NCBI RefSeq assembly: GCF_045037415.1
Contig: NZ_CP173438.1
From: Escherichia coli
GTDB taxonomy: Bacteria; Pseudomonadota; Gammaproteobacteria; Enterobacterales; Enterobacteriaceae
Strand: one strand, 5' to 3'
Length of the DNA stretch: 64,000 bases
This document shows, piece after piece, positions 4,644 to 61,934 of the stretch (its first letter is position 1; each line of letters starts with the position of its first letter). A model generated the notes under the pieces. That model saw only the letters and a list, made by a program, of their open reading frames with translations. It did no database searches and was not told where the DNA came from. Position numbers and translations under genes: made by a program.

Positions 4644-6308
4644 ATGTGTTCAATTTTTGGCGTATTCGATATCAAAACAGACGCAGTTGAGCTGCGTAAG
4701 AAAGCACTCGAGCTGTCACGCCTGATGCGTCATCGTGGCCCGGACTGGTCCGGTATTTATGCCAGCGATAACGCCATTCTCGCCCACGAACGTCTGTCAA
4801 TTGTTGACGTTAACGCGGGGGCGCAACCTCTCTACAACCAACAAAAAACTCATGTGCTGGCAGTAAACGGTGAAATCTACAACCACCAGGCATTGCGCGC
4901 TGAATATGGCGATCGTTACCAGTTCCAGACCGGGTCTGACTGTGAAGTGATCCTCGCGCTGTATCAGGAAAAAGGGCCGGAATTTCTCGACGACTTGCAG
5001 GGCATGTTTGCCTTTGCCCTGTACGACAGCGAAAAAGATGCATATCTGATTGGTCGCGACCATCTGGGGATCATCCCACTGTATATGGGCTATGACGAAC
5101 ACGGTCAGCTGTATGTGGCCTCAGAAATGAAAGCCCTCGTGCCAGTTTGCCGCACGATTAAAGAGTTTCCGGCGGGGAGCTATTTGTGGAGTCAGGACGG
5201 CGAAATCCGTTCTTATTATCATCGCGACTGGTTCGACTACGATGCGGTGAAAGATAACGTGACCGACAAAAACGAGCTGCGTCAGGCACTGGAAGATTCC
5301 GTTAAAAGCCATCTGATGTCTGATGTGCCTTACGGTGTGCTGCTTTCTGGTGGTCTGGATTCCTCAATTATTTCCGCTATCACCAAGAAATACGCCGCCC
5401 GTCGCGTGGAAGATCAGGAACGCTCTGAAGCCTGGTGGCCGCAGTTGCACTCCTTTGCTGTAGGTCTGCCGGGTTCACCGGATCTGAAAGCAGCCCAGGA
5501 AGTGGCAAACCATCTGGGCACGGTGCATCACGAAATTCACTTCACTGTACAGGAAGGTCTGGATGCCATCCGCGACGTGATTTACCACATCGAAACTTAT
5601 GATGTGACCACTATTCGCGCTTCAACACCGATGTATTTAATGTCGCGTAAGATCAAGGCGATGGGCATTAAAATGGTGCTGTCCGGTGAAGGTTCTGACG
5701 AAGTGTTTGGCGGTTATCTCTACTTCCACAAAGCGCCGAACGCTAAAGAGTTGCATGAAGAGACGGTGCGTAAACTGCTGGCCCTGCATATGTATGACTG
5801 CGCGCGTGCCAACAAAGCGATGTCAGCCTGGGGCGTGGAAGCACGCGTTCCGTTCCTCGACAAAAAATTCCTTGATGTGGCGATGCGCATTAACCCACAG
5901 GATAAAATGTGCGGTAACGGCAAAATGGAAAAACACATCCTGCGTGAATGTTTTGAAGCGTATCTGCCTGCAAGCGTGGCCTGGCGGCAAAAAGAGCAGT
6001 TCTCCGATGGCGTCGGTTACAGTTGGATCGACACCCTGAAAGAAGTGGCAGCGCAGCAGGTTTCTGATCAACAGCTGGAAACTGCCCGCTTCCGCTTCCC
6101 GTACAACACGCCGACCTCAAAAGAAGCGTATCTGTACCGGGAGATCTTTGAAGAATTGTTCCCGCTTCCGAGCGCCGCTGAGTGCGTGCCGGGCGGTCCT
6201 TCCGTCGCTTGTTCTTCCGCTAAAGCGATTGAGTGGGATGAAGCGTTCAAGAAAATGGACGATCCGTCTGGTCGCGCGGTTGGCGTTCACCAGTCGGCAT
6301 ATAAATAA
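4644..6308 (+). CDS. asnB: asparagine synthetase B (glutamine-hydrolysing)
   Basis: ORF track starts at 4632 (MEKVM...) but the real start is the ATG giving Met-Cys (MCSIFGVFDIK), the N-terminal Cys nucleophile of class II amidotransferases; 554 aa. Confidence 0.96.
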   Translation: MCSIFGVFDIKTDAVELRKKALELSRLMRHRGPDWSGIYASDNAILAHERLSIVDVNAGAQPLYNQQKTHVLAVNGEIYNHQALRAEYGDRYQFQTGSDCEVILALYQEKGPEFLDDLQGMFAFALYDSEKDAYLIGRDHLGIIPLYMGYDEHGQLYVASEMKALVPVCRTIKEFPAGSYLWSQDGEIRSYYHRDWFDYDAVKDNVTDKNELRQALEDSVKSHLMSDVPYGVLLSGGLDSSIISAITKKYAARRVEDQERSEAWWPQLHSFAVGLPGSPDLKAAQEVANHLGTVHHEIHFTVQEGLDAIRDVIYHIETYDVTTIRASTPMYLMSRKIKAMGIKMVLSGEGSDEVFGGYLYFHKAPNAKELHEETVRKLLALHMYDCARANKAMSAWGVEARVPFLDKKFLDVAMRINPQDKMCGNGKMEKHILRECFEAYLPASVAWRQKEQFSDGVGYSWIDTLKEVAAQQVSDQQLETARFRFPYNTPTSKEAYLYREIFEELFPLPSAAECVPGGPSVACSSAKAIEWDEAFKKMDDPSGRAVGVHQSAYK

Positions 6309-6349: not shown

Positions 6350-6787
6350 TTACTGGGGCGCTTGTTGATTCTGATATGCAGTAAGGAAATGTTCCGGGTT
6401 TGCCACATCGCTATTTGACAACTCATCACTGTAGGCCACCAACCAGGTCGCCTGCTCATCCGGAATATGCAGTCTGCCATTTCCCTCTTTCAGGCGTAAT
6501 AACTCAAAAGATTTGCCCTTAATTACGGCGGTATAGGATTTCTCACCTTCCTGTAATGCTTTCACTTTACAGCGAAATATCTGACCATCGATGTCATTAT
6601 CAACATGCGATACCTGAATGAGGGCTTCATTAGAAGCTTTCGGGCCTATCCGCATCATCCACACCACAGCGCCTTCCTGCCCACGATAGCCAAAAACATA
6701 TTTACCGATTTCCGGTTTAACCGTATCGGCGAACGCAGATTGCATAAGTAATAACGCACCCATCAACGCCGTCATAAAACGCAGCAT
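6350..6787 (-). CDS. hypothetical exported protein, 145 aa, predicted signal peptide (MLRFMTALMGALLLMQSAFA|DT)
   Basis: Clean ORF, hydrophobic N-terminal signal with AFA cleavage motif, no TM segment afterwards; no family recognised. Lies between asnB and the metT promoter. Confidence 0.6.
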   Translation of the reverse strand: MLRFMTALMGALLLMQSAFADTVKPEIGKYVFGYRGQEGAVVWMMRIGPKASNEALIQVSHVDNDIDGQIFRCKVKALQEGEKSYTAVIKGKSFELLRLKEGNGRLHIPDEQATWLVAYSDELSNSDVANPEHFLTAYQNQQAPQ

Positions 6788-7050
6788 AGTATTCCCTCAA
6801 TAAATCGCCTGAAGTGGTAGCAGAGATGCAGGCGTAGCGATCCCTGCCCTGTCCTGTTGCAACGGGCCAGTATTTCATAGATTAATTTCCCACCACTATT
6901 GTTGAATTCCGAATTTCATCCTGTATGACAAAAGAATGGCTGTAGGGTGGGGAAAAAACACAAAGTAAACAATAATTGACGAATATAGCGCCATGCTGTT
7001 CGCAACCTAACCAAACAGTCACTTTCGAGCAATTTTCCTTGAAAAAGAGG

Positions 7051-7079
7051 TTGACGCTGCAAGGCTCTATACGCATAAT
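7051..7079 (+). promoter_or_regulatory. sigma70 promoter of the metT tRNA operon (-35 TTGACG, 17-bp spacer, -10 CATAAT, GC-rich discriminator)
   Basis: Motifs read directly; GC-rich discriminator gcgccccgc typical of stringently controlled stable-RNA promoters; ~40 bp upstream of the first tRNA. Confidence 0.6.
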
Positions 7080-7120
7080 GCGCCCCGCAACGCCGATAAG
7101 GTATCGCGAAAAAAAAAGAT

Positions 7121-7197
7121 GGCTACGTAGCTCAGTTGGTTAGAGCACATCACTCATAATGATGGGGTCACAGGTTCGAATCCCGTCGTAGCCACCA
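7121..7197 (+). tRNA. metT: tRNA-Met (CAU), elongator
   Basis: ggctacgtagctcagttggttagagcacatcactCATaatgatggggtcacaggttcgaatcccgtcgtagccacca; cloverleaf with CAU anticodon, encoded CCA. Confidence 0.95.
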
Positions 7198-7207
7198 TCT
7201 TTTTTTT

Positions 7208-7292
7208 GCGGGAGTGGCGAAATTGGTAGACGCACCAGATTTAGGTTCTGGCGCCGCAAGGTGTGCGAGTTCAAGTCTCGCCTCCCGCACCA
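7208..7292 (+). tRNA. leuW: tRNA-Leu (UAG), long variable arm
   Basis: gcgggagtggcgaaattggtagacgcaccagattTAGgttctggcgccgcaaggtgtgcgagttcaagtctcgcctcccgcacca. Confidence 0.95.
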
Positions 7293-7315
7293 TTCACCAG
7301 AAAGCGTTGTACGGA

Positions 7316-7390
7316 TGGGGTATCGCCAAGCGGTAAGGCACCGGTTTTTGATACCGGCATTCCCTGGTTCGAATCCAGGTACCCCAGCCA
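7316..7390 (+). tRNA. glnU: tRNA-Gln (UUG)
   Basis: tggggtatcgccaagcggtaaggcaccggtttTTGataccggcattccctggttcgaatccaggtaccccagcca. Confidence 0.95.
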
Positions 7391-7424
7391 TATTCTTCGA
7401 GTAAGCGGTTCACCGCCCGGTTAT

Positions 7425-7499
7425 TGGGGTATCGCCAAGCGGTAAGGCACCGGTTTTTGATACCGGCATTCCCTGGTTCGAATCCAGGTACCCCAGCCA
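7425..7499 (+). tRNA. glnW: tRNA-Gln (UUG), identical duplicate
   Basis: Identical 75-nt sequence to the preceding tRNA-Gln(UUG). Confidence 0.95.
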
Positions 7500-7514
7500 T
7501 CGAAGAAACAATCT

Positions 7515-7591
7515 GGCTACGTAGCTCAGTTGGTTAGAGCACATCACTCATAATGATGGGGTCACAGGTTCGAATCCCGTCGTAGCCACCA
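7515..7591 (+). tRNA. metU: tRNA-Met (CAU), elongator, duplicate
   Basis: Identical to the first tRNA-Met. Confidence 0.95.
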
Positions 7592-7639
7592 AATTCTGAA
7601 TGTGTCGAATATGTTCGGCAAATTCAAAAACCAATTTGT

Positions 7640-7714
7640 TGGGGTATCGCCAAGCGGTAAGGCACCGGATTCTGATTCCGGCATTCCGAGGTTCGAATCC
7701 TCGTACCCCAGCCA
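7640..7714 (+). tRNA. glnV: tRNA-Gln (CUG)
   Basis: tggggtatcgccaagcggtaaggcaccggattCTGattccggcattccgaggttcgaatcctcgtaccccagcca. Confidence 0.95.
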
Positions 7715-7751
7715 ATTTATTCAAGACGCTTACCTTGTAAGTGCACCCAGT

Positions 7752-7826
7752 TGGGGTATCGCCAAGCGGTAAGGCACCGGATTCTGATTCCGGCATTCCG
7801 AGGTTCGAATCCTCGTACCCCAGCCA
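7752..7826 (+). tRNA. glnX: tRNA-Gln (CUG), duplicate
   Basis: Identical to preceding tRNA-Gln(CUG). Confidence 0.95.
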
Positions 7827-7830
7827 CATT

Positions 7831-7860
7831 AAAAAAGCTCGCTTCGGCGAGCTTTTTGCT
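7831..7860 (+). terminator. rho-independent terminator of the tRNA operon
   Basis: aagctcgc-ttcg-gcgagctt hairpin followed by TTTTT. Confidence 0.75.
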
Positions 7861-7914
7861 TTTCTGCGTATATTCAATGCCGAATACGATGTTGACTCGT
7901 CTTATCCTTACAAA

Positions 7915-7950
7915 GTCGGATGCGACGCTGCCGCGTCTTATCCGACCTAC
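7915..7950. repeat. REP-like palindromic element
   Basis: gtcggatgcgacgctgccgcgtcttatccgacctac resembles the enterobacterial REP/PU consensus. Confidence 0.5.
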
Positions 7951-7980: not shown

Positions 7981-9156
7981 CTACAACCCTAACGCATATT
8001 TCAGCGCCTTACGTTTCAACACGCCAGCACGCTCCGCCGCCATCAAACCAAGATTACGCACAAAACGCAGCGGTGGCAGATTATTGCTGAATCCGGCATA
8101 AAACAGATCCATACCACTTTGCATCATGAAGTTATCCGCCATACGCCGCATCTGGTAACGCTTGAGCACAGGATAACTGGCCCACGCTTCGCCGTAGCTG
8201 CGGGCGTTCACCAGAACGTCAATCAGGGCATCGACATCACGATAACCAAGATTCACTCCCTGCCCCGCCAGCGGATGGATGGTATGCGCGGCATCGCCCA
8301 CCAGAGCAAGCCCTGGTTGCACATACTGCAACGCATGGCGACGTATAAGCGGAAACGCACCAGCGGCAAGCGGTGTCACGTAACCCAGACGCGACGGGAA
8401 ATGCTTCGCGATTTCCGCCTGTAGCTGCGCCATATTCATATTCTGCAACTGGCGAATGCGCGCCGGAGAGTCATACCACACCAGCGATGCCCAGTTATCA
8501 AACAACGGCAGAAACGCACGCGGTCCGTCCGGGGTAAATTGCTGCCAGGTGCTGTCGCCGGGATCGTTCTCACACTGTACGCTAATCAACATACACGACT
8601 GCGCATACTGCCAGGCATGAACGCCAATTCCCGCCATCTGTCGCACCTGCGAATTTGCGCCGTCGGCACCAATCACCAGCTTCGCGAGGATCGTTTCACC
8701 GCCCTTCAGTTCCAGCTCCTGAAGATCATTATGGCGATGCAGTGCAGTCAGCGAGGTTGGCACACGTAACGTTACTTTCGGATGCGCTTCCAGCGCCTGC
8801 CACAAAGCCTGTTGCAGGACAGTGTTTTCCACCATGTAGCCAAGCAACGGTAGCTTAAGTTCAGCGGCGTCAAACACGACATGCGCCGTTTCCCACTCCC
8901 ACGTTTCCAGTCTGCGGTAAGGATGGCAACGCATAGCCTGTACTGCATCCCAGACCCCTAACCCTTTAAGCAATGATACCGAAGCCGCGCTGATCGCCGA
9001 GATCCGCACATCCGGTTGGCTGTCAGCGACAAACGGCGCAGGTTCTGCGTGCTCGATCACCGTTACCGTAAACCCGTGCTGTGCCAGCCCCAGCGCCAGT
9101 GCGCCGCCGACCATTCCTCCGCCGACAATGGCAATTTCCGTTGGTTGATTTGTCAT
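7981..9156 (-). CDS. ubiF: 2-octaprenyl-3-methyl-6-methoxy-1,4-benzoquinol hydroxylase (FAD monooxygenase)
   Basis: ORF 7981-9162; N-terminal FAD-binding GGGMVGG motif; start taken at the second Met (MTNQPTEIAIVGGG), 391 aa. Confidence 0.93.
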   Translation of the reverse strand: MTNQPTEIAIVGGGMVGGALALGLAQHGFTVTVIEHAEPAPFVADSQPDVRISAISAASVSLLKGLGVWDAVQAMRCHPYRRLETWEWETAHVVFDAAELKLPLLGYMVENTVLQQALWQALEAHPKVTLRVPTSLTALHRHNDLQELELKGGETILAKLVIGADGANSQVRQMAGIGVHAWQYAQSCMLISVQCENDPGDSTWQQFTPDGPRAFLPLFDNWASLVWYDSPARIRQLQNMNMAQLQAEIAKHFPSRLGYVTPLAAGAFPLIRRHALQYVQPGLALVGDAAHTIHPLAGQGVNLGYRDVDALIDVLVNARSYGEAWASYPVLKRYQMRRMADNFMMQSGMDLFYAGFSNNLPPLRFVRNLGLMAAERAGVLKRKALKYALGL

Positions 9157-12472: not shown

Positions 12473-13352
12473 ATGAGCGACGACAATTCACACAGTAGTG
12501 ACACGATAAGCAACAAGAAGGGATTTTTCTCCCTGTTACTCAGCCAACTTTTCCACGGTGAACCGAAAAACCGTGACGAACTGCTGGCGCTGATCCGTGA
12601 TTCCGGGCAGAACGACCTTATCGACGAAGATACGCGCGATATGCTCGAAGGGGTGATGGACATCGCAGACCAACGCGTTCGCGACATCATGATCCCCCGC
12701 TCCCAGATGATTACCCTGAAACGCAACCAGACGCTGGACGAATGCCTTGATGTCATCATCGAGTCCGCCCACTCACGTTTCCCGGTGATTAGCGAAGACA
12801 AAGATCACATTGAAGGGATTCTGATGGCGAAAGACTTGCTGCCGTTTATGCGCAGCGATGCTGAAGCCTTCAGCATGGACAAAGTGTTACGTCAGGCGGT
12901 TGTCGTTCCTGAAAGTAAGCGCGTAGACCGGATGCTGAAAGAGTTTCGCTCTCAGCGTTACCACATGGCGATCGTCATTGACGAATTCGGTGGGGTTTCC
13001 GGTTCTCGTGACCATTGAAGACATCCTGGAACTGATTGTTGGTGAGATTGAAGACGAGTATGACGAAGAAGATGATATCGACTTCCGTCAGCTGAGTCGT
13101 CATACCTGGACCGTGCGCGCACTGGCTTCTATTGAAGACTTCAACGAAGCGTTCGGCACCCACTTTAGCGATGAAGAGGTTGACACTATCGGTGGTCTGG
13201 TGATGCAGGCATTTGGGCATCTTCCGGCGCGTGGCGAAACCATCGACATCGACGGTTACCAGTTCAAAGTGGCGATGGCCGACAGTCGGCGTATTATTCA
13301 GGTTCATGTCAAAATCCCGGATGACTCACCCCAGCCGAAGCTGGATGAATAA
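12473..13352 (+). pseudogene. corC: corC/ybeX (CBS-domain Mg/Co efflux-associated protein) disrupted by a +1 frameshift near 13003
   Basis: Two ORFs (12473-13018, 181 aa; 12978-13352, 124 aa) together cover the 292-aa CorC sequence; the span is 880 nt (not a multiple of 3); frame changes after ...DEFGGVSG at ggTTctc. Confidence 0.75.
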
Positions 13353-15041: not shown

Positions 15042-16919
15042 TTACGGTTCAGGGATACAAGCCACATCGCCATATTGGGGATGCCGAATAATTGCCTGCG
15101 GATCAAGTGAACTTTCTCTGTCCAGTTGTATTAGCCCGTTCTTCGCCATAACAAATATCTTTCTACCATCCGCTGAAAAACGAAGATGATTCACGTAGCT
15201 GGCAGGATAAACGCCAATAATCTGCCCGGCATTAATATTGAGCAGGATGACATAACCTTGCAGGCCATATGACACCAACGCTAAATATTGACCGTCCGGG
15301 CTAATACCCTCAACGGAATAAACGCTCCTGCTACACCATTGCGTCATAATGCTGGCTTGTTGATCCTCAGCTCTTATACGTGAAATCCCCTGGCTATCGG
15401 CAAAAATAATCTCACCATTTTTTGGTCGGAATCCCATCGCAGAAACGACACCACGCGCATCACCTGCGGGAAAGTCTTCTTTCTGATGCGTGATGGTATT
15501 GATCCGCACGATGTTACCTCTGCCTGCTCCCGGAACCAGTAATGTTTTTTCATCCGGGGAAAGTGCCATAACCCAGGCGCCTGGTTTACCGCTCATCCCC
15601 GTCCCGTCGTATTTCTCCAGCGGGATATCCGCCACATGCTGATAAGCCACCAGATCAATCGCTGACACACTATTACTGGTGCGATTCATCACCCAGGCTT
15701 TTGTGCCATCACGCGAGAGGATAAGGCTGTCAGGATGTGCGCCGGTGGTAATCGACTGAATAATCTCCCCCGTTGCCACGTTAATGACCGATAATGCATT
15801 CGCTTCAAATGAAGTCGCATACAGCAACGTTTCATCCGGGCTTAGCGCCAGCGACCTGACGCCCTGATCTTTACAGCCACCACAATGTTTGACTGACTTT
15901 TCTTTCGCTATGGGGGCTGTAAAGGTATGCAGGATTTTCTTTTGTCCGAGGTCGAAAACAACAATGCTGTTCGTGTTTTCAATTGCGGCATACAACGTAT
16001 TAGCATCCCGACTGATCGCCATATCATGGATATCGGCAATCTCAGCGAGTAAATCACCACTGGCCTGCTCACGACTTACCGGAGCGGATAATGTTTCCCT
16101 GAGGGCGTTGCGCTCCTCCACTAACTGCTGCTTTTTTTGTCGTCGCTCTTGTTCAATCTCCTGCGGATAAAACGCTTCACGCAGGCTTTGCCTGACCTGT
16201 AAAACTGATTCATCAATCTGCTGCTGCACAAGCCAGATAGTCCCGGTCAGAAGAAGAGTGACCGCAACAATAATCCCGCCTTCCGTAACGAGCCGATTTT
16301 GCCCAACTAAACGCGCACTCAGCCAACCCAACGCGCCCCCCGCAATCAGGCCGCCAATGTGGCAAGCGTTATCTATTCCTGTTTGCCGGGTACCATACAA
16401 CAGTGTCAGCGCCACCATACCCAACAGAGGAAATACTCGCCGCTGGTTTTTATGGTGTGTGCCCGCACCTGAAGCAAGCTGTGTTGCTATCGCAGCGCCC
16501 GCTATTCCCATAATTGCCCCGGATGCCCCAACGCTGATGACTATCTGCTCACTTTCGCGTAACGCATAACAGGCGCTGATCAGCCCACCAAAGATGCCGG
16601 AGAATAACCAGATAATCAGGAGTCGCCATTTCCCCAGTATCCGTTCCGCCACTGTCCCCACCACCAGGAGTGCAAACATATTCATCAGCAAATGGGAAAA
16701 ACTACTGTGCAGAAAAACACTGCTCAATAAGCGCCAGGATTCATCCGACAACGTGAGAGAAGCAACGTTAGCGCCGAGATGGATGAGTGCGGATTGATCG
16801 ACTTCTTCGTAACTCATCCATTGTGCGAGGTAACAAAATATCCCAACACAGAGCGCAAAAAGGATCAGGGTTATTGCGGGTAATTGAACATTTAACGGCT
16901 TAACCGAAGATGCAGACAT
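15042..16919 (-). CDS. rhomboid-family intramembrane serine protease fused to a C-terminal seven-bladed beta-propeller (YVTN/YncE-like), 625 aa
   Basis: N-terminal ~230 aa: 7 predicted TM helices with rhomboid signatures (TM2 FLHSSFSHLLMNMF, catalytic GASGAIMG, catalytic His in ACHIGGLIAGG). Then a charged coiled-coil-like linker (QEIEQERRQKKQQLVEERNALRE) and ~350 aa of repeated beta-strand blades. Good RBS (AAGGAAG). Confidence 0.8.
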   Translation of the reverse strand: MSASSVKPLNVQLPAITLILFALCVGIFCYLAQWMSYEEVDQSALIHLGANVASLTLSDESWRLLSSVFLHSSFSHLLMNMFALLVVGTVAERILGKWRLLIIWLFSGIFGGLISACYALRESEQIVISVGASGAIMGIAGAAIATQLASGAGTHHKNQRRVFPLLGMVALTLLYGTRQTGIDNACHIGGLIAGGALGWLSARLVGQNRLVTEGGIIVAVTLLLTGTIWLVQQQIDESVLQVRQSLREAFYPQEIEQERRQKKQQLVEERNALRETLSAPVSREQASGDLLAEIADIHDMAISRDANTLYAAIENTNSIVVFDLGQKKILHTFTAPIAKEKSVKHCGGCKDQGVRSLALSPDETLLYATSFEANALSVINVATGEIIQSITTGAHPDSLILSRDGTKAWVMNRTSNSVSAIDLVAYQHVADIPLEKYDGTGMSGKPGAWVMALSPDEKTLLVPGAGRGNIVRINTITHQKEDFPAGDARGVVSAMGFRPKNGEIIFADSQGISRIRAEDQQASIMTQWCSRSVYSVEGISPDGQYLALVSYGLQGYVILLNINAGQIIGVYPASYVNHLRFSADGRKIFVMAKNGLIQLDRESSLDPQAIIRHPQYGDVACIPEP

Positions 16920-17372: not shown

Positions 17373-18281
17373 ATGCAATTACGTAAACCTGCCACAGCAA
17401 TCCTGGCCCTGGCGCTTTCCGCAGGACTGGCACAGGCAGATGACGCCGCCCCGGCAGCTGGCAATACGCTGGACAAAATCGCCAAAAACGGCGTGATTGT
17501 CGTCGGTCACCGTGAATCTTCAGTACCTTTCTCTTATTACGACAATCAGCAAAAAGTGGTGGGCTACTCGCAGGATTACTCCAACGCCATTGTTGAAGCA
17601 GTGAAAAAGAAACTCAACAAACCAGACTTACAGGTGAAATTGATTCCGATCACCTCACAAAACCGTATTCCACTGCTGCAAAACGGCACTTTCGATTTTG
17701 AATGCGGTTCTACCACCAACAATGCCGAACGCCAAAAACAGGCGGCTTTCTCTAACACTATTTTCGTGGTCGGTACGCGCCTGCTGACCAAAAAGGGCGG
17801 TGATATCAAAGATTTTGCCGACCTGAAAGGCAAAGCCGTAGTCGTCACTTCCGGCACCACCTCTGAAGTTTTGCTCAACAAACTGAATGAAGAGCAAAAA
17901 ATGAATATGCGCATCATCAGCGCCAAAGATCACGGTGACTCTTTCCGTACCCTGGAAAGCGGTCGTGCCGTTGCCTTTATGATGGATGATGCTCTGCTGG
18001 CCGGTGAACGTGCGAAAGCGAAGAAACCAGACAACTGGGAAATCGTCGGCAAGCCGCAGTCTCAGGAAGCCTATGGTTGCATGTTGCGTAAAGACGATCC
18101 GCAGTTCAAAAAGCTGATGGATGATACCATCGCTCAGGTGCAGACCTCCGGTGAAGCGGAAAAATGGTTTGATAAGTGGTTCAAAAATCCAATTCCGCCG
18201 AAAAACCTGAACATGAATTTCGAACTGTCAGACGAAATGAAAGCACTGTTCAAAGAACCGAATGACAAGGCACTGAACTAA
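17373..18281 (+). CDS. gltI: glutamate/aspartate ABC transporter periplasmic binding protein
   Basis: ORF track 17304-18281; true start at MQLRKPATAILALALSAGLAQA (signal peptide) preceded by AAGGAG; 302 aa. Confidence 0.95.
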   Translation: MQLRKPATAILALALSAGLAQADDAAPAAGNTLDKIAKNGVIVVGHRESSVPFSYYDNQQKVVGYSQDYSNAIVEAVKKKLNKPDLQVKLIPITSQNRIPLLQNGTFDFECGSTTNNAERQKQAAFSNTIFVVGTRLLTKKGGDIKDFADLKGKAVVVTSGTTSEVLLNKLNEEQKMNMRIISAKDHGDSFRTLESGRAVAFMMDDALLAGERAKAKKPDNWEIVGKPQSQEAYGCMLRKDDPQFKKLMDDTIAQVQTSGEAEKWFDKWFKNPIPPKNLNMNFELSDEMKALFKEPNDKALN

Positions 18282-18437
18282 TTACAAGAACCAGGGGCGG
18301 AAATTCCAGCCCTCTCGATTGTTACGTAGCACGGACAGACTATACGCCTGGTGGTCGTTCCCCATCGGGCCTGAAAACCGCAATACGCTGGGTAACAATC
18401 TTCGAGGGTAGCAGTTAACGCTGCTACCCTCTTTTTT
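18280..18437 (+). ncRNA. sroC: SroC sRNA (processed from the gltI 3' end / gltI-gltJ spacer)
   Basis: 169-bp gltI-gltJ spacer ending in hairpin gagggtagcagttaacgctgctaccctc plus TTTTTT (18404-18437); SroC is known to derive from this spacer. 5' end not determinable from sequence. Confidence 0.5.
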
Positions 18438-18450
18438 CTGGAGTAGATTT

Positions 18451-21726: not shown

Positions 21727-23397
21727 ATGGATAATGCAGAACTTGCTATTGGTATCGATCTCGGTACTACCAATAGTTTAATTGCCGTCTGGAAAGACGG
21801 TGCCGCGCAATTAATTCCAAATAAGTTCGGTGAATATTTAACACCATCCATAATTAGCATGGATGAAAATAATCATATTTTAGTCGGAAAACCGGCTGTA
21901 TCACGGCGGACTTCGCATCCGGATAAAACGGCAGCGTTATTTAAACGTGCAATGGGCAGTAATACCAACTGGCGGTTAGGCAGCGACACATTTAACGCGC
22001 CAGAACTGTCCTCTTTGGTATTACGCTCATTAAAAGAAGATGCCGAAGAATTTCTGCAACGTCCGATTAAAGATGTGGTGATCTCCGTTCCTGCTTATTT
22101 CAGCGATGAACAACGCAAGCATACCCGTTTAGCAGCAGAGTTAGCCGGGCTAAATGCAGTGCGCCTGATTAATGAGCCAACGGCAGCCGCGATGGCGTAT
22201 GGCCTGCATACGCAGCAAAATACCCGCTCGCTGGTTTTTGATCTCGGTGGCGGCACGTTCGACGTTACGGTGCTCGAGTACGCCACGCCGGTGATTGAAG
22301 TTAACGCCTCCGCTGGCGATAACTTCCTCGGTGGCGAAGATTTTACCCATATGCTGGTCGATGAGGTTTTAAAACGCGCGGAAGTTGCCAAAACCACGCT
22401 TAACGATAGCGAACTGGCAGCCTTGTACGCCTGCGTGGAAGCGGCAAAATGTAGCAATCAATCGCCAATGCACATTCGCTGGCAGTACCAGGATGAAATG
22501 CGGAAATGCGAATTTTACGAGAACGAACTGGAAGATTTGTGGTTGCCGCTGCTCAATCGCTTGCGAGTGCCGATTGAACAGGCGTTGCGCGATGCACGTC
22601 TGAAGCCGAGTCAAATCGACAGTCTGGTGCTGGTTGGCGGCGCGTCACAAATGCCGCTGGTGCAGCGAATCGCAGTGCGTCTGTTTGGCAAATTACCGTA
22701 TCAAAGTTACGATCCGAGCACCATTGTCGCGCTGGGCGCAGCAATCCAGGCCGCCTGCCGCTTACGCAATGAAGATATTGAAGAAGTGATCCTCACTGAT
22801 ATTTGCCCTTACTCGTTGGGTGTTGAAGTTAACCGTCAGGGCGTATCCGGCATTTTCTCGCCGATTATTGAACGAAACACCACAGTACCGGTGTCGCGTG
22901 TAGAAACTTATTCAACCATGCACCCGGAACAGGATTCAATTACGGTTAACGTCTATCAGGGAGAAAACCACAAAGTTAAAAATAACATTCTTGTGGAATC
23001 CTTCGATGTGCCGTTGAAGAAAACCGGGACTTATCAGTCGATTGATATTCGCTTTAGTTATGATATCAACGGCTTGCTTGAAGTTGACGTGCTTCTGGAA
23101 GACGGCAGCGTTAAGTCCAGAGTGATTAATCACAGTCCGGTAACATTGAGCGCGCAGCAGATTGAAGAGAGTCGGACGCGGTTATCCGCATTGAAAATTT
23201 ATCCGCGCGATATGCTCATCAATCGCACCTTTAAAGCCAAACTGGAAGAGTTGTGGGCGCGGGCGCTGGGTGACGAGCGAGAAGAGATTGGTCGGGTGAT
23301 CACCGATTTTGATGCGGCGTTGCAGTCAAACGATATGGCCCGCGTGGATGAAGTTCGGCGGCGGGCGAGCGATTATTTAGCCATTGAGATCCCATAA
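21727..23397 (+). CDS. hscC: Hsp70-family chaperone HscC
   Basis: 556-aa ORF, Hsp70 ATPase motifs (IGIDLGTTNS, DLGGGTFD). Confidence 0.95.
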   Translation: MDNAELAIGIDLGTTNSLIAVWKDGAAQLIPNKFGEYLTPSIISMDENNHILVGKPAVSRRTSHPDKTAALFKRAMGSNTNWRLGSDTFNAPELSSLVLRSLKEDAEEFLQRPIKDVVISVPAYFSDEQRKHTRLAAELAGLNAVRLINEPTAAAMAYGLHTQQNTRSLVFDLGGGTFDVTVLEYATPVIEVNASAGDNFLGGEDFTHMLVDEVLKRAEVAKTTLNDSELAALYACVEAAKCSNQSPMHIRWQYQDEMRKCEFYENELEDLWLPLLNRLRVPIEQALRDARLKPSQIDSLVLVGGASQMPLVQRIAVRLFGKLPYQSYDPSTIVALGAAIQAACRLRNEDIEEVILTDICPYSLGVEVNRQGVSGIFSPIIERNTTVPVSRVETYSTMHPEQDSITVNVYQGENHKVKNNILVESFDVPLKKTGTYQSIDIRFSYDINGLLEVDVLLEDGSVKSRVINHSPVTLSAQQIEESRTRLSALKIYPRDMLINRTFKAKLEELWARALGDEREEIGRVITDFDAALQSNDMARVDEVRRRASDYLAIEIP

Positions 23398-23402
23398 ACA
23401 CG

Positions 23403-23440
23403 GCTACCGGATGCGGCGTAAACGCTGCATCCGGCATCGG
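23403..23440. repeat. REP-like palindrome
   Basis: ccggatgcggcgtaaacgctgcatccgg. Confidence 0.45.
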
Positions 23441-23456
23441 CGCAAAAAACACATCG

Positions 23457-24907
23457 TCAACTAAACAACATCGCGATTTTGCCGAGAGCATAACCTATCA
23501 CCAGCACCGTTAAACTGATTTTGATAATGCTGGTAATGCTCTGTGGTTTTTCATCCTCATCATTTATTTCTTCATGGTTTTCAGGTGTTGGCTCATCGAC
23601 ATCTTCATCCTCCGGCTCGAGCTTCACTTTCGTCAACAGCATTCGGGTGATAATGGTTCTAATGGATGTGCCTCTCCGCGTTCCAGCCGCGCGTCCAGAC
23701 GGGCCAGCATCTCTTGTTTCGGAAACGCTTCAAGTACTACCTGTTCCGCTACCCGATACAAATCCAGTAACGGTGAATCTTGCTCTGTCTCGCTACCGAC
23801 TCTCGATTTCCACCACGCCCATGCTTTGCGTTTGAAGAATAACGACTCAATAAACGATTGACCTAACGGCGATAATTTTCCGCTATGTAAAATCTCCGCC
23901 CATAACAGCCGCGTCCGGGCGCTCTCACCAGGAACATATTTCAACGGCTTACCTTGCGCATCTACCATGCTCCGCGCTTCGATAACCATCACTAATAACG
24001 CGAAATAATCCGGGCAATGACGCTTGCTCCACTGCAACAACAAATTATCGGCTTGTGTAGATGGGTAACTTTCCCGGTACGCGCAGAGATCGGCAAGCAG
24101 GCTTTCCCCCTCGCCGCAGTACAACCGTTGTGCGCACTGGTAATAACGGGCATCTTCGCTTTCTGGTTCTTCCGCTTGCCACTGTTGAGCGACAGGAATG
24201 AGTTCCGCCATACCTGTTTGCACCGAGCTGTACCAGCGCAACAGTTTGCGATGCAACTTCGCATCATCAGGAATGAACCACGGACCTTCCATCGCCAAAA
24301 ACGCAGTGACATAGTCAGGATGGTAACGGCAGCAACGTTCCAGCGAGAAGTAATACTCAACCGTCTGGTTCTGCAACGCAACGGGATATTCCAGAAGGCT
24401 AAGGAAATCGAAACAATCACCAGCCTGAATGGCCTCAAGAAAAGCCTCCCTTTCTTCCTCATCTATTCCTTCGCAGTCATTAAACGAATGCCAGTTCAAA
24501 CGCTCTGCCAGCAAAGAAGCACAATTTAATGAAAGATATCGCGCTTCTATAGCGATTGCACACAGCGGCCAGCGTAATTGATCGACATCCTCCATGTTCC
24601 AGGTATTTAATTGCTGAATAAATTTCTGCCAGGCGGAGGGCTGAAAACGATCATTTTCTGAATCCAGTAATGCCCTGAATACACGTAGTATTTCATGCTC
24701 AGTGGCAGCATCTTTTTCTTCATCATCTGCTTCCTCGACAGGATTTACCGCCAGTCGCAGCGCCTCTTCATAGGCCTGGCGTAATGCTTTAAACCCTTGT
24801 GGATCGGTTTCGGGATGACATAACGGTAAGCGAGCAAGATAAGCCTGGCGGATAATGTCTATTTGCGTCGTGCTTTCAATTTCGAGGATTTGCCAACATG
24901 TTTTCAT
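23457..24907 (-). pseudogene. djlC: J-domain co-chaperone DjlC (YbeV) with an apparent -1 frameshift near 23633-23642
   Basis: ORF 23633-24907 (424 aa, J-domain-like N-terminus) and ORF 23457-23642 (61 aa, acidic linker plus C-terminal TM anchor) overlap by 10 nt in different frames; combined span 1451 nt is not a multiple of 3 (expected 1452 for the 483-aa protein). Confidence 0.65.
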
Positions 24908-57719: not shown

Positions 57720-57948
57720 TCCTCTGATTTACAAAACACGCTAATTCGTCTTCCATAAACCATGACGATTAAGATTTATACATAATGCGCTACATTGAGG
57801 AATTCCCTGAATGTGACGCAAATCACTTCAAAGAGTGAGCAACAGTCAGTATCATCATGTGAGTTAAACCCTCGCCGCCTGACGGTGAGGGTTTTCTTTT
57901 GGGTATGTTTATCTGCGACACTCGCAGTACCGACGACATGGAGTAAAA

Positions 57949-61563: not shown

Positions 61564-61934
61564 CTATACTTCCTCCGTGTTTTCGATGAGATGTAAGGTA
61601 ACCAATTTTTGCCGATTCGGCTAATGCGTTTCCATTATCAAATCGATAAGTTTTACCTTACAACCTTCGTAAGACAACTTTGTGAACTTTGCACCGCCAG
61701 CGGCGATAAAAAGTAAAATGGCCCCCTTTCCAGGTGACCGTGTAATCTGAACTACCCTTTGGTATCTTCAGCACCTGCCTGCAGGCTGAGGTGTTGCCCT
61801 TACAAATGCAACAACGACATGGATTACAACACCCTCATAAACAAAGGGCAATCACCTGATCTAAGCTCTTACCTATGACAGTGATAGGTTATGCCTTTTA
61901 CTCGACTTTTGCACTGACTGAAAAGGACAAATTA

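Follow-up and report, generated by a model that had tools for sequence, protein, structure and literature searches.

The seven tRNA genes at positions 7051–7860 of the window (the whole 64,000-nt stretch of Escherichia coli DNA that was analysed), an interval that opens at the −35 hexamer and closes where the terminator stem ends, almost certainly constitute the E. coli metT operon, with one promoter, one terminator and no integrated mobile element. This operon is already known and is an ordinary feature; its original description, as cited in PMC9514646 (reference 78), is that of Nakajima, Ozeki and Shimura (Cell 23:239, 1981). The direction of the polymorphism found next to it is here corrected: the 145-aa ORF upstream of the promoter is an ancestral gene lost in roughly four fifths of E. 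coli genomes, and no extra DNA has been gained.

ARAGORN predicted exactly seven tRNA genes across the 64-kb window, all on the + strand between nt 7121 and 7826, and all of them (7/7) were matched by the Rfam tRNA model RF00005 with scores of 57.6–71.1 bits (E 1e-10 to 1e-14). The two methods agree on the order that had been proposed from the sequence: Met, Leu-UAG, two Gln-UUG, Met and two Gln-CUG. The genes, each called by both ARAGORN and Rfam, and their flanks, taken from the ORF list and from the annotation of the near-identical E. coli SA186 chromosome, are the following:

4644–6308, + strand: asnB (asparagine synthase B), upstream flank
7121–7197, + strand: metT, elongator tRNA-Met (CAU)
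7208–7292, + strand: leuW, tRNA-Leu (UAG)
7316–7390, + strand: glnU, tRNA-Gln (UUG)
7425–7499, + strand: glnW, tRNA-Gln (UUG), same sequence as glnU
7515–7591, + strand: metU, elongator tRNA-Met (CAU), same sequence as metT
7640–7714, + strand: glnV, tRNA-Gln (CUG)
7752–7826, + strand: glnX, tRNA-Gln (CUG), same sequence as glnV
7981–9156, − strand: ubiF, downstream flank

Direct sequence comparison verified the predicted arrangement in three exact duplicate pairs plus Leu, the members of the Met, Gln-UUG and Gln-CUG pairs being 100% identical to each other; the Gln-UUG and Gln-CUG genes differ from one another at 7 of 75 positions. The CCA end is encoded in all seven genes. Elongator and initiator tRNA-Met are told apart by the pairing of position 1:72 and by the three G-C pairs of the anticodon stem. 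Since in both Met genes position 1:72 is paired and the anticodon stem has no run of three G-C pairs, they were assigned to elongator tRNAs.

The window is 99.989% identical to the SA186 chromosome and collinear with it throughout, and the same seven tRNAs are annotated there, within the neighbourhood nagE-nagBACD-asnB-[tRNAs]-ubiF-miaB-ybeZ-ybeY-corC-lnt. In both the ORF list and the SA186 annotation, the operon site is thus bordered by asnB on one side and ubiF on the other. Gene content and order agree with Table 1 of PMC11480407, where the metT operon is described as essential; the reason is that it carries every gene copy of elongator tRNA-Met, of tRNA-Leu(UAG) and of both tRNA-Gln species. 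The seven genes, their order and anticodons, the asnB and ubiF flanks, the one promoter and the one Rho-independent terminator are all shared with the known E. coli operon, and no difference was found inside it; the only difference lies upstream, where an intact 145-aa gene is found here and a 431-bp deletion in most E. coli.

Of 5,426 complete E. coli genomes, 5,424 contain a match to the operon. Query coverage in one place reached 80% or more in 5,375 of these, and the match was at least 99% identical in 4,936. E. albertii, Salmonella enterica and Pseudocitrobacter cyperus have the seven genes in the same order.

A few variants of the operon were observed. In the complete-genome assembly of CEA224S (NZ_CP166080.1; L004, 3440–3510) all seven tRNAs are missing and the promoter leader is fused to the sequence that follows glnX (...AAAAAAAAGA|CATTAAAAAAGC...). 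No other copy of the operon was found on the chromosome of this strain nor, by record count, on its plasmid; the first 50 kb of pCEA224S contain no tRNA gene, and the lysT tRNA operon is intact. This assembly conflicts with the essentiality of the operon unless it is wrong and, because the unit is essential in K-12, the loss of the seven tRNAs is likely an assembly error. In strain AVS0575 (L014, 9600–9674) six tRNAs are annotated in the operon, one Gln-CUG copy being absent, and three more genomes (matches H93, H14 and H81) are listed with three Gln genes; such losses presumably reflect recombination between identical duplicates. Plasmid-borne or relocated copies of the operon were also considered and rejected, the matches in the plasmid collection being mostly mislabelled chromosomes or large chromosomal fragments.

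The signals governing transcription of the unit are, in order:

6990–7050, + strand: A/T-rich region upstream of the promoter, highly conserved (near-invariant in the four taxa compared, namely E. coli, E. albertii, Salmonella and Pseudocitrobacter)
7051–7079, + strand: metT operon promoter, −35 TTGACG (7051–7056), 17-nt spacer and −10 CATAAT (7074–7079), from sequence, scan and conservation
7080–7088, + strand: GC-rich discriminator GCGCCCCGC, from sequence, invariant in the four taxa
7832–7866, + strand: Rho-independent terminator (hairpin 7832–7857), with an 11-bp stem, a UUCG loop and a T-rich tail, from folding and conservation

The promoter hexamers match at 10 of 12 positions. The hexamers alone are not significant because shuffled sequence yields as many sites (two promoter-like sites found by the hexamer scan versus 2.5 expected); support for the site comes from its place 42 nt upstream of the first tRNA and from its invariance across the four taxa. 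Indeed, in the four-way alignment the −35, the −10, the discriminator, the leader and approximately 100 bp upstream are almost invariant, and the sequence diverges further upstream. This pattern supports a functional promoter with upstream activating sequences, and the region 6990–7050 may represent a putative activating region of the UP-element or Fis type. Transcription would start near the 3′ end of the discriminator. The promoter followed by a GC-rich discriminator that had been predicted is therefore present, TTGACG-17-CATAAT and then GCGCCCCGC being invariant across the four taxa. The further designation of the promoter as stringent-type, that is, subject to stringent or growth-rate control, is read from the same discriminator and is best kept as a possibility suggested by its sequence and conservation; a literature search on control of metT by ppGpp, Fis or the discriminator retrieved nothing specific to this operon. 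When compared with stable-RNA promoters such as rrnB P1, the metT promoter shares a near-consensus −35, a GCGCC directly downstream of the −10 and conserved A/T-rich DNA further upstream, and differs in having CATAAT as −10 and a spacer of 17 nt.

At the other end of the unit, the terminator hairpin has a predicted folding energy of −17.9 kcal/mol versus a shuffle mean of −8.5 (z = −4.1), with none of 200 shuffled sequences as stable, and it is invariant across the same four taxa; the strong terminator claimed at first sight is thus confirmed. Judging from the sequence, the unit has one promoter-like site only and one strong hairpin at its end, with no terminator in between. One sigma-70 promoter would hence drive a single transcript of about 780 nt with the seven tRNAs, which would stop at the strong intrinsic terminator. 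[quoted passage not shown] Published work also names RNase G as an alternative to RNase E and has exonucleases trim the separated tRNAs to the encoded CCA end. An A/U-rich stretch, CAUUAAAAAA, located between the last CCA and the terminator hairpin, would fit the reported RNase E step.

As tRNA loci may host integrated elements, the original prediction had noted that none is present at this operon, and this was found to hold. No tRNA 12-mer occurs elsewhere in the 64-kb window on either strand. A word-7 blastn-short search for tRNA repeats gave, as best match, 16 nt with one mismatch (E 0.21), located 39 kb away and corresponding to the anticodon arm and not to the 3′ end, and the search for a duplicated tRNA 3′ fragment (attR) flanking the 145-aa ORF was run and found none. 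No integrase, transposase or phage gene is annotated in the collinear 64 kb of SA186, and the succession last tRNA (glnX), terminator and ubiF is contiguous in 5,371 of 5,426 genomes. The locus has in common with tRNA-associated islands and prophages, which carry an integrase and attL/attR derived from the tRNA 3′ end, the presence of strain-variable DNA beside a tRNA locus; it differs in having neither an integrase nor a tRNA-derived repeat, in the variable DNA lying on the 5′ side, and in the variation being the deletion of an ancestral gene. The result is a clean negative: across about 5,400 E. coli genomes, this essential multi-tRNA operon does not serve for integration.

Some variation was also seen between the operon and ubiF, where the window contains the following element:

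7882–7947, + strand: REP-like palindromic element in the terminator-ubiF interval, sub-threshold match to naRNA4 (RF02564)

This element, which is found also in E. albertii and is absent from Salmonella and Pseudocitrobacter, resembles REP sequences. In strain ET201 (L017, 5915–6895) the operon and ubiF are separated by a copy of IS621 (IS110 family), which lies in the stretch where the window has its REP-like element. IS621 targets REP sequences, and the ET201 copy is not a tRNA-targeted island. It is the only mobile DNA at the locus in the genomes inspected, ET201 being the weakest case, and the only one inspected, of the 55 genomes with less than 80% coverage of the glnX-ubiF segment. In Salmonella enterica (L007, 2261–2836) the place of the E. 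coli REP-like element is occupied by a 191-aa, very hydrophobic ORF of 41.8% GC, located between the operon terminator and ubiF, with no Pfam match on record and no NCBIfam match. An att-flanked insertion was considered for this ORF and discarded, as no tRNA-derived repeat of at least 12 nt was found around it and NCBIfam gave no match.

The DNA that does vary among E. coli strains lies on the promoter side of the operon:

6350–6787, − strand: uncharacterised 145-aa ORF, an ancestral gene of this site that most E. coli have deleted, from ORF list, homologs, synteny, dN/dS and structural model
6434–6438, no strand: left GGCCA microhomology, where the 431-bp deletion has one of its endpoints, from comparison with ORF-less E. 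coli
6865–6869, no strand: right GGCCA microhomology, the other endpoint, from the same comparison

A probe internal to the ORF matched 985 of 5,426 genomes, with one copy each and always on the chromosome, whereas a 50-nt probe spanning the deletion junction matched 4,132 of 5,426; about 309 genomes matched neither. ORF-bearing genomes include one O25b:H4-ST131 genome, SA186 and CE10; K-12 presumably lacks the gene. The ORF-less genomes do not display a clean empty site: they retain, at the GGCCA junction, the last 29 codons of the ORF and its stop (89 nt), and lack the 431 bp comprised between the two GGCCA pentamers. Indeed, when the 431-bp segment is removed from the window, the ORF-less allele is obtained with 3 mismatches in 380 nt. 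The intact ORF is found between asnB and the tRNA operon also in E. albertii, Salmonella and Pseudocitrobacter, and its dN/dS is 0.105 versus E. albertii and 0.089 versus Salmonella. Synteny in other genera and a dN/dS of about 0.1 indicate that the site carried the ORF ancestrally and that the ORF evolves under purifying selection, most E. coli carrying a deletion allele. The original prediction had regarded the 145-aa ORF as the only extra DNA near the operon; this is correct only with respect to ORF-less E. coli, and an insertion is contradicted by the synteny, the dN/dS values and the GGCCA deletion scar. The gene, separate from the operon and divergently oriented, was lost from most E. 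coli by a 431-bp deletion between the two GGCCA repeats.

Whether the polymorphism reflects one inherited deletion allele or a hotspot of repeated independent deletions was also considered. The 5-bp direct repeats at the endpoints could recombine more than once, and ORF-less alleles (strains A4 and P793) are found on flanks 99.5–99.6% identical to those of the ORF-bearing window; against this, one junction sequence is common to 4,132 genomes and no alternative junction was seen among the genomes inspected, the approximately 309 genomes in neither class lying outside that inspection. Repeated deletion is unlikely.

It is also very unlikely that the ORF is all that remains of an islet acquired horizontally beside the tRNA operon, and that the locus therefore carries old foreign DNA. 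In favour of such an origin, the G+C content of the ORF (46.3%, GC3 47.9%) is lower than that of its neighbours (52–56%, GC3 57–63%), the ORF is variably present in E. coli (985/5,426), and homologs occur at unrelated enterobacterial loci, for instance with a TonB-dependent receptor gene on one side and a PTS EIICB gene on the other and, in one case, within a group of small ORFs of 40% GC that lies directly against the 3′ end of an initiator tRNA-fMet gene. However, tRNA-targeting integrases insert at tRNA 3′ ends while the ORF stands on the 5′, promoter side of the operon, and neither an att-like repeat nor an integrase was found. Furthermore, Escherichia, Salmonella and Pseudocitrobacter all have the ORF at the same site, and the genomes without it show an internal deletion scar in place of an empty site. 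The site shared by three genera and the scar imply that any acquisition predates these genera and has left no recognisable element. Given the low G+C and the distant homologs at other loci, an ancient horizontal origin keeps a small probability.

The homolog close to tRNA-fMet is found in a metagenomic enterobacterial contig (L010, 3621–5313), where an ORF 57% identical to the 145-aa ORF lies between amiC and mltA, within a cluster of four small ORFs of 40% GC that abuts the 3′ end of the initiator tRNA-fMet gene and in which no integrase was called; this position would suit an island remnant. The idea, raised by this contig, that the ORF family tracks tRNA loci was rejected, since other homologs have a TonB-dependent receptor gene and a PTS EIICB gene as neighbours or lie in unrelated surroundings.

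That the 145-aa ORF is no gene at all, and that a long regulatory spacer just happens to contain an open frame, is hardly credible. It is true that Pfam, NCBIfam and PDB sequence searches, performed with both the ORF and a 74-member family alignment, were all empty, that the annotation reads just hypothetical protein, and that the scan gave no convincing sigma-70 promoter for the ORF. On the contrary, besides the low dN/dS values reported above, the reading frame is kept down to 56% identity, a GAGGGA motif lies 5 nt upstream of the ATG, an exhaustive HMMER search retrieved at least 150 homolog clusters at E ≤ 0.001 (mostly 135–155 aa, 25–40% identity), and the AlphaFold2 model is confident (pLDDT 91.8). 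A chance frame is thus effectively refuted.

The ORF product begins with a signal-peptide-like N-terminus, MLRFMTALMGALLLMQSAFA, followed by D. Cleavage is predicted after SAFA (residue 20). Some homologs are fused behind cytoplasmic domains, namely C-terminal to TIR_2 (P0106 and P0190), to a class III cyclase (P0065) and to a receiver domain (P0095), and in these the alignment starts at query residues 19–24, so that the boundary of the domain coincides with the predicted cleavage position. The AlphaFold2 model consists of eight beta-strands and a C-terminal helix, and the product is therefore modelled as an apparently secreted eight-stranded beta-barrel, its export being predicted from the N-terminus and the domain boundary. 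The predicted fold is closest to those of PliC and PhiA but lacks their motifs. With the MliC/PliC periplasmic lysozyme inhibitors the modelled ORF product shares the eight-stranded antiparallel beta-barrel; it differs from them in the absence of SxSGAxY and YxxxTKG, in having a single Cys, an extra C-terminal helix and no Pfam match, and in an identity of only 6–16%. Both signature motifs and the disulphide between beta1 and beta8 of the MliC/PliC family have been defined in PMC5507604. As only one cysteine is present, this disulphide cannot form in the ORF product, and the lack of the motifs and of the disulphide indicates a shared fold class and not family membership.

Our best guess, held with low confidence, is a putative periplasmic binding or inhibitor protein. 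Taken in full, the suggestion that the ORF founds an undescribed family of small secreted beta-barrels with no Pfam model, possibly periplasmic binders or inhibitors, for example of a peptidoglycan hydrolase as PliC or PhiA, kept in a minority of E. coli (the ST131 genome and other human-urine isolates) and lost elsewhere by one 431-bp deletion, is speculative and improbable as a whole. Some by-products of the analysis are perhaps of modest practical use: the deletion as a lineage marker, the beta-barrel family that has no name, the suspect assembly and the indel errors linked to a motif.

As for the last of these, the window differs from SA186 by only two indels, at 13001–13007 and 23654–23659, both inside GGTCTC motifs (GGTCTC to GGTTCTC and GGTCTC to GGTTC), which frameshift corC and djlC. 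Only four GGTCTC sites occur in the 64-kb stretch of SA186, and the chance of both indels falling in the motif is about 1e-7. The two indels look like a motif-linked, possibly methylation-related, sequencing error and not like real pseudogenes. In the SA186 annotation, ybeQ with an adjacent fragment and a ybeF-family regulator (window approximately 40300–41000 and 22900–23500) are reported as pseudogenes, frameshifted or truncated.

Elsewhere in the window, a 625-aa gene annotated as rhomboid family intramembrane serine protease (15042–16919, − strand) lies between lnt and gltI, at a position where K-12 has an IS5. Finally, four RNA families were matched by Rfam above the gathering thresholds, all of them expected in this E. 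coli region:

18277–18439: sroC
44368–44816: cspE mRNA (cspA thermoregulator family)
57795–57903: rnk leader
61708–61801: STnc70
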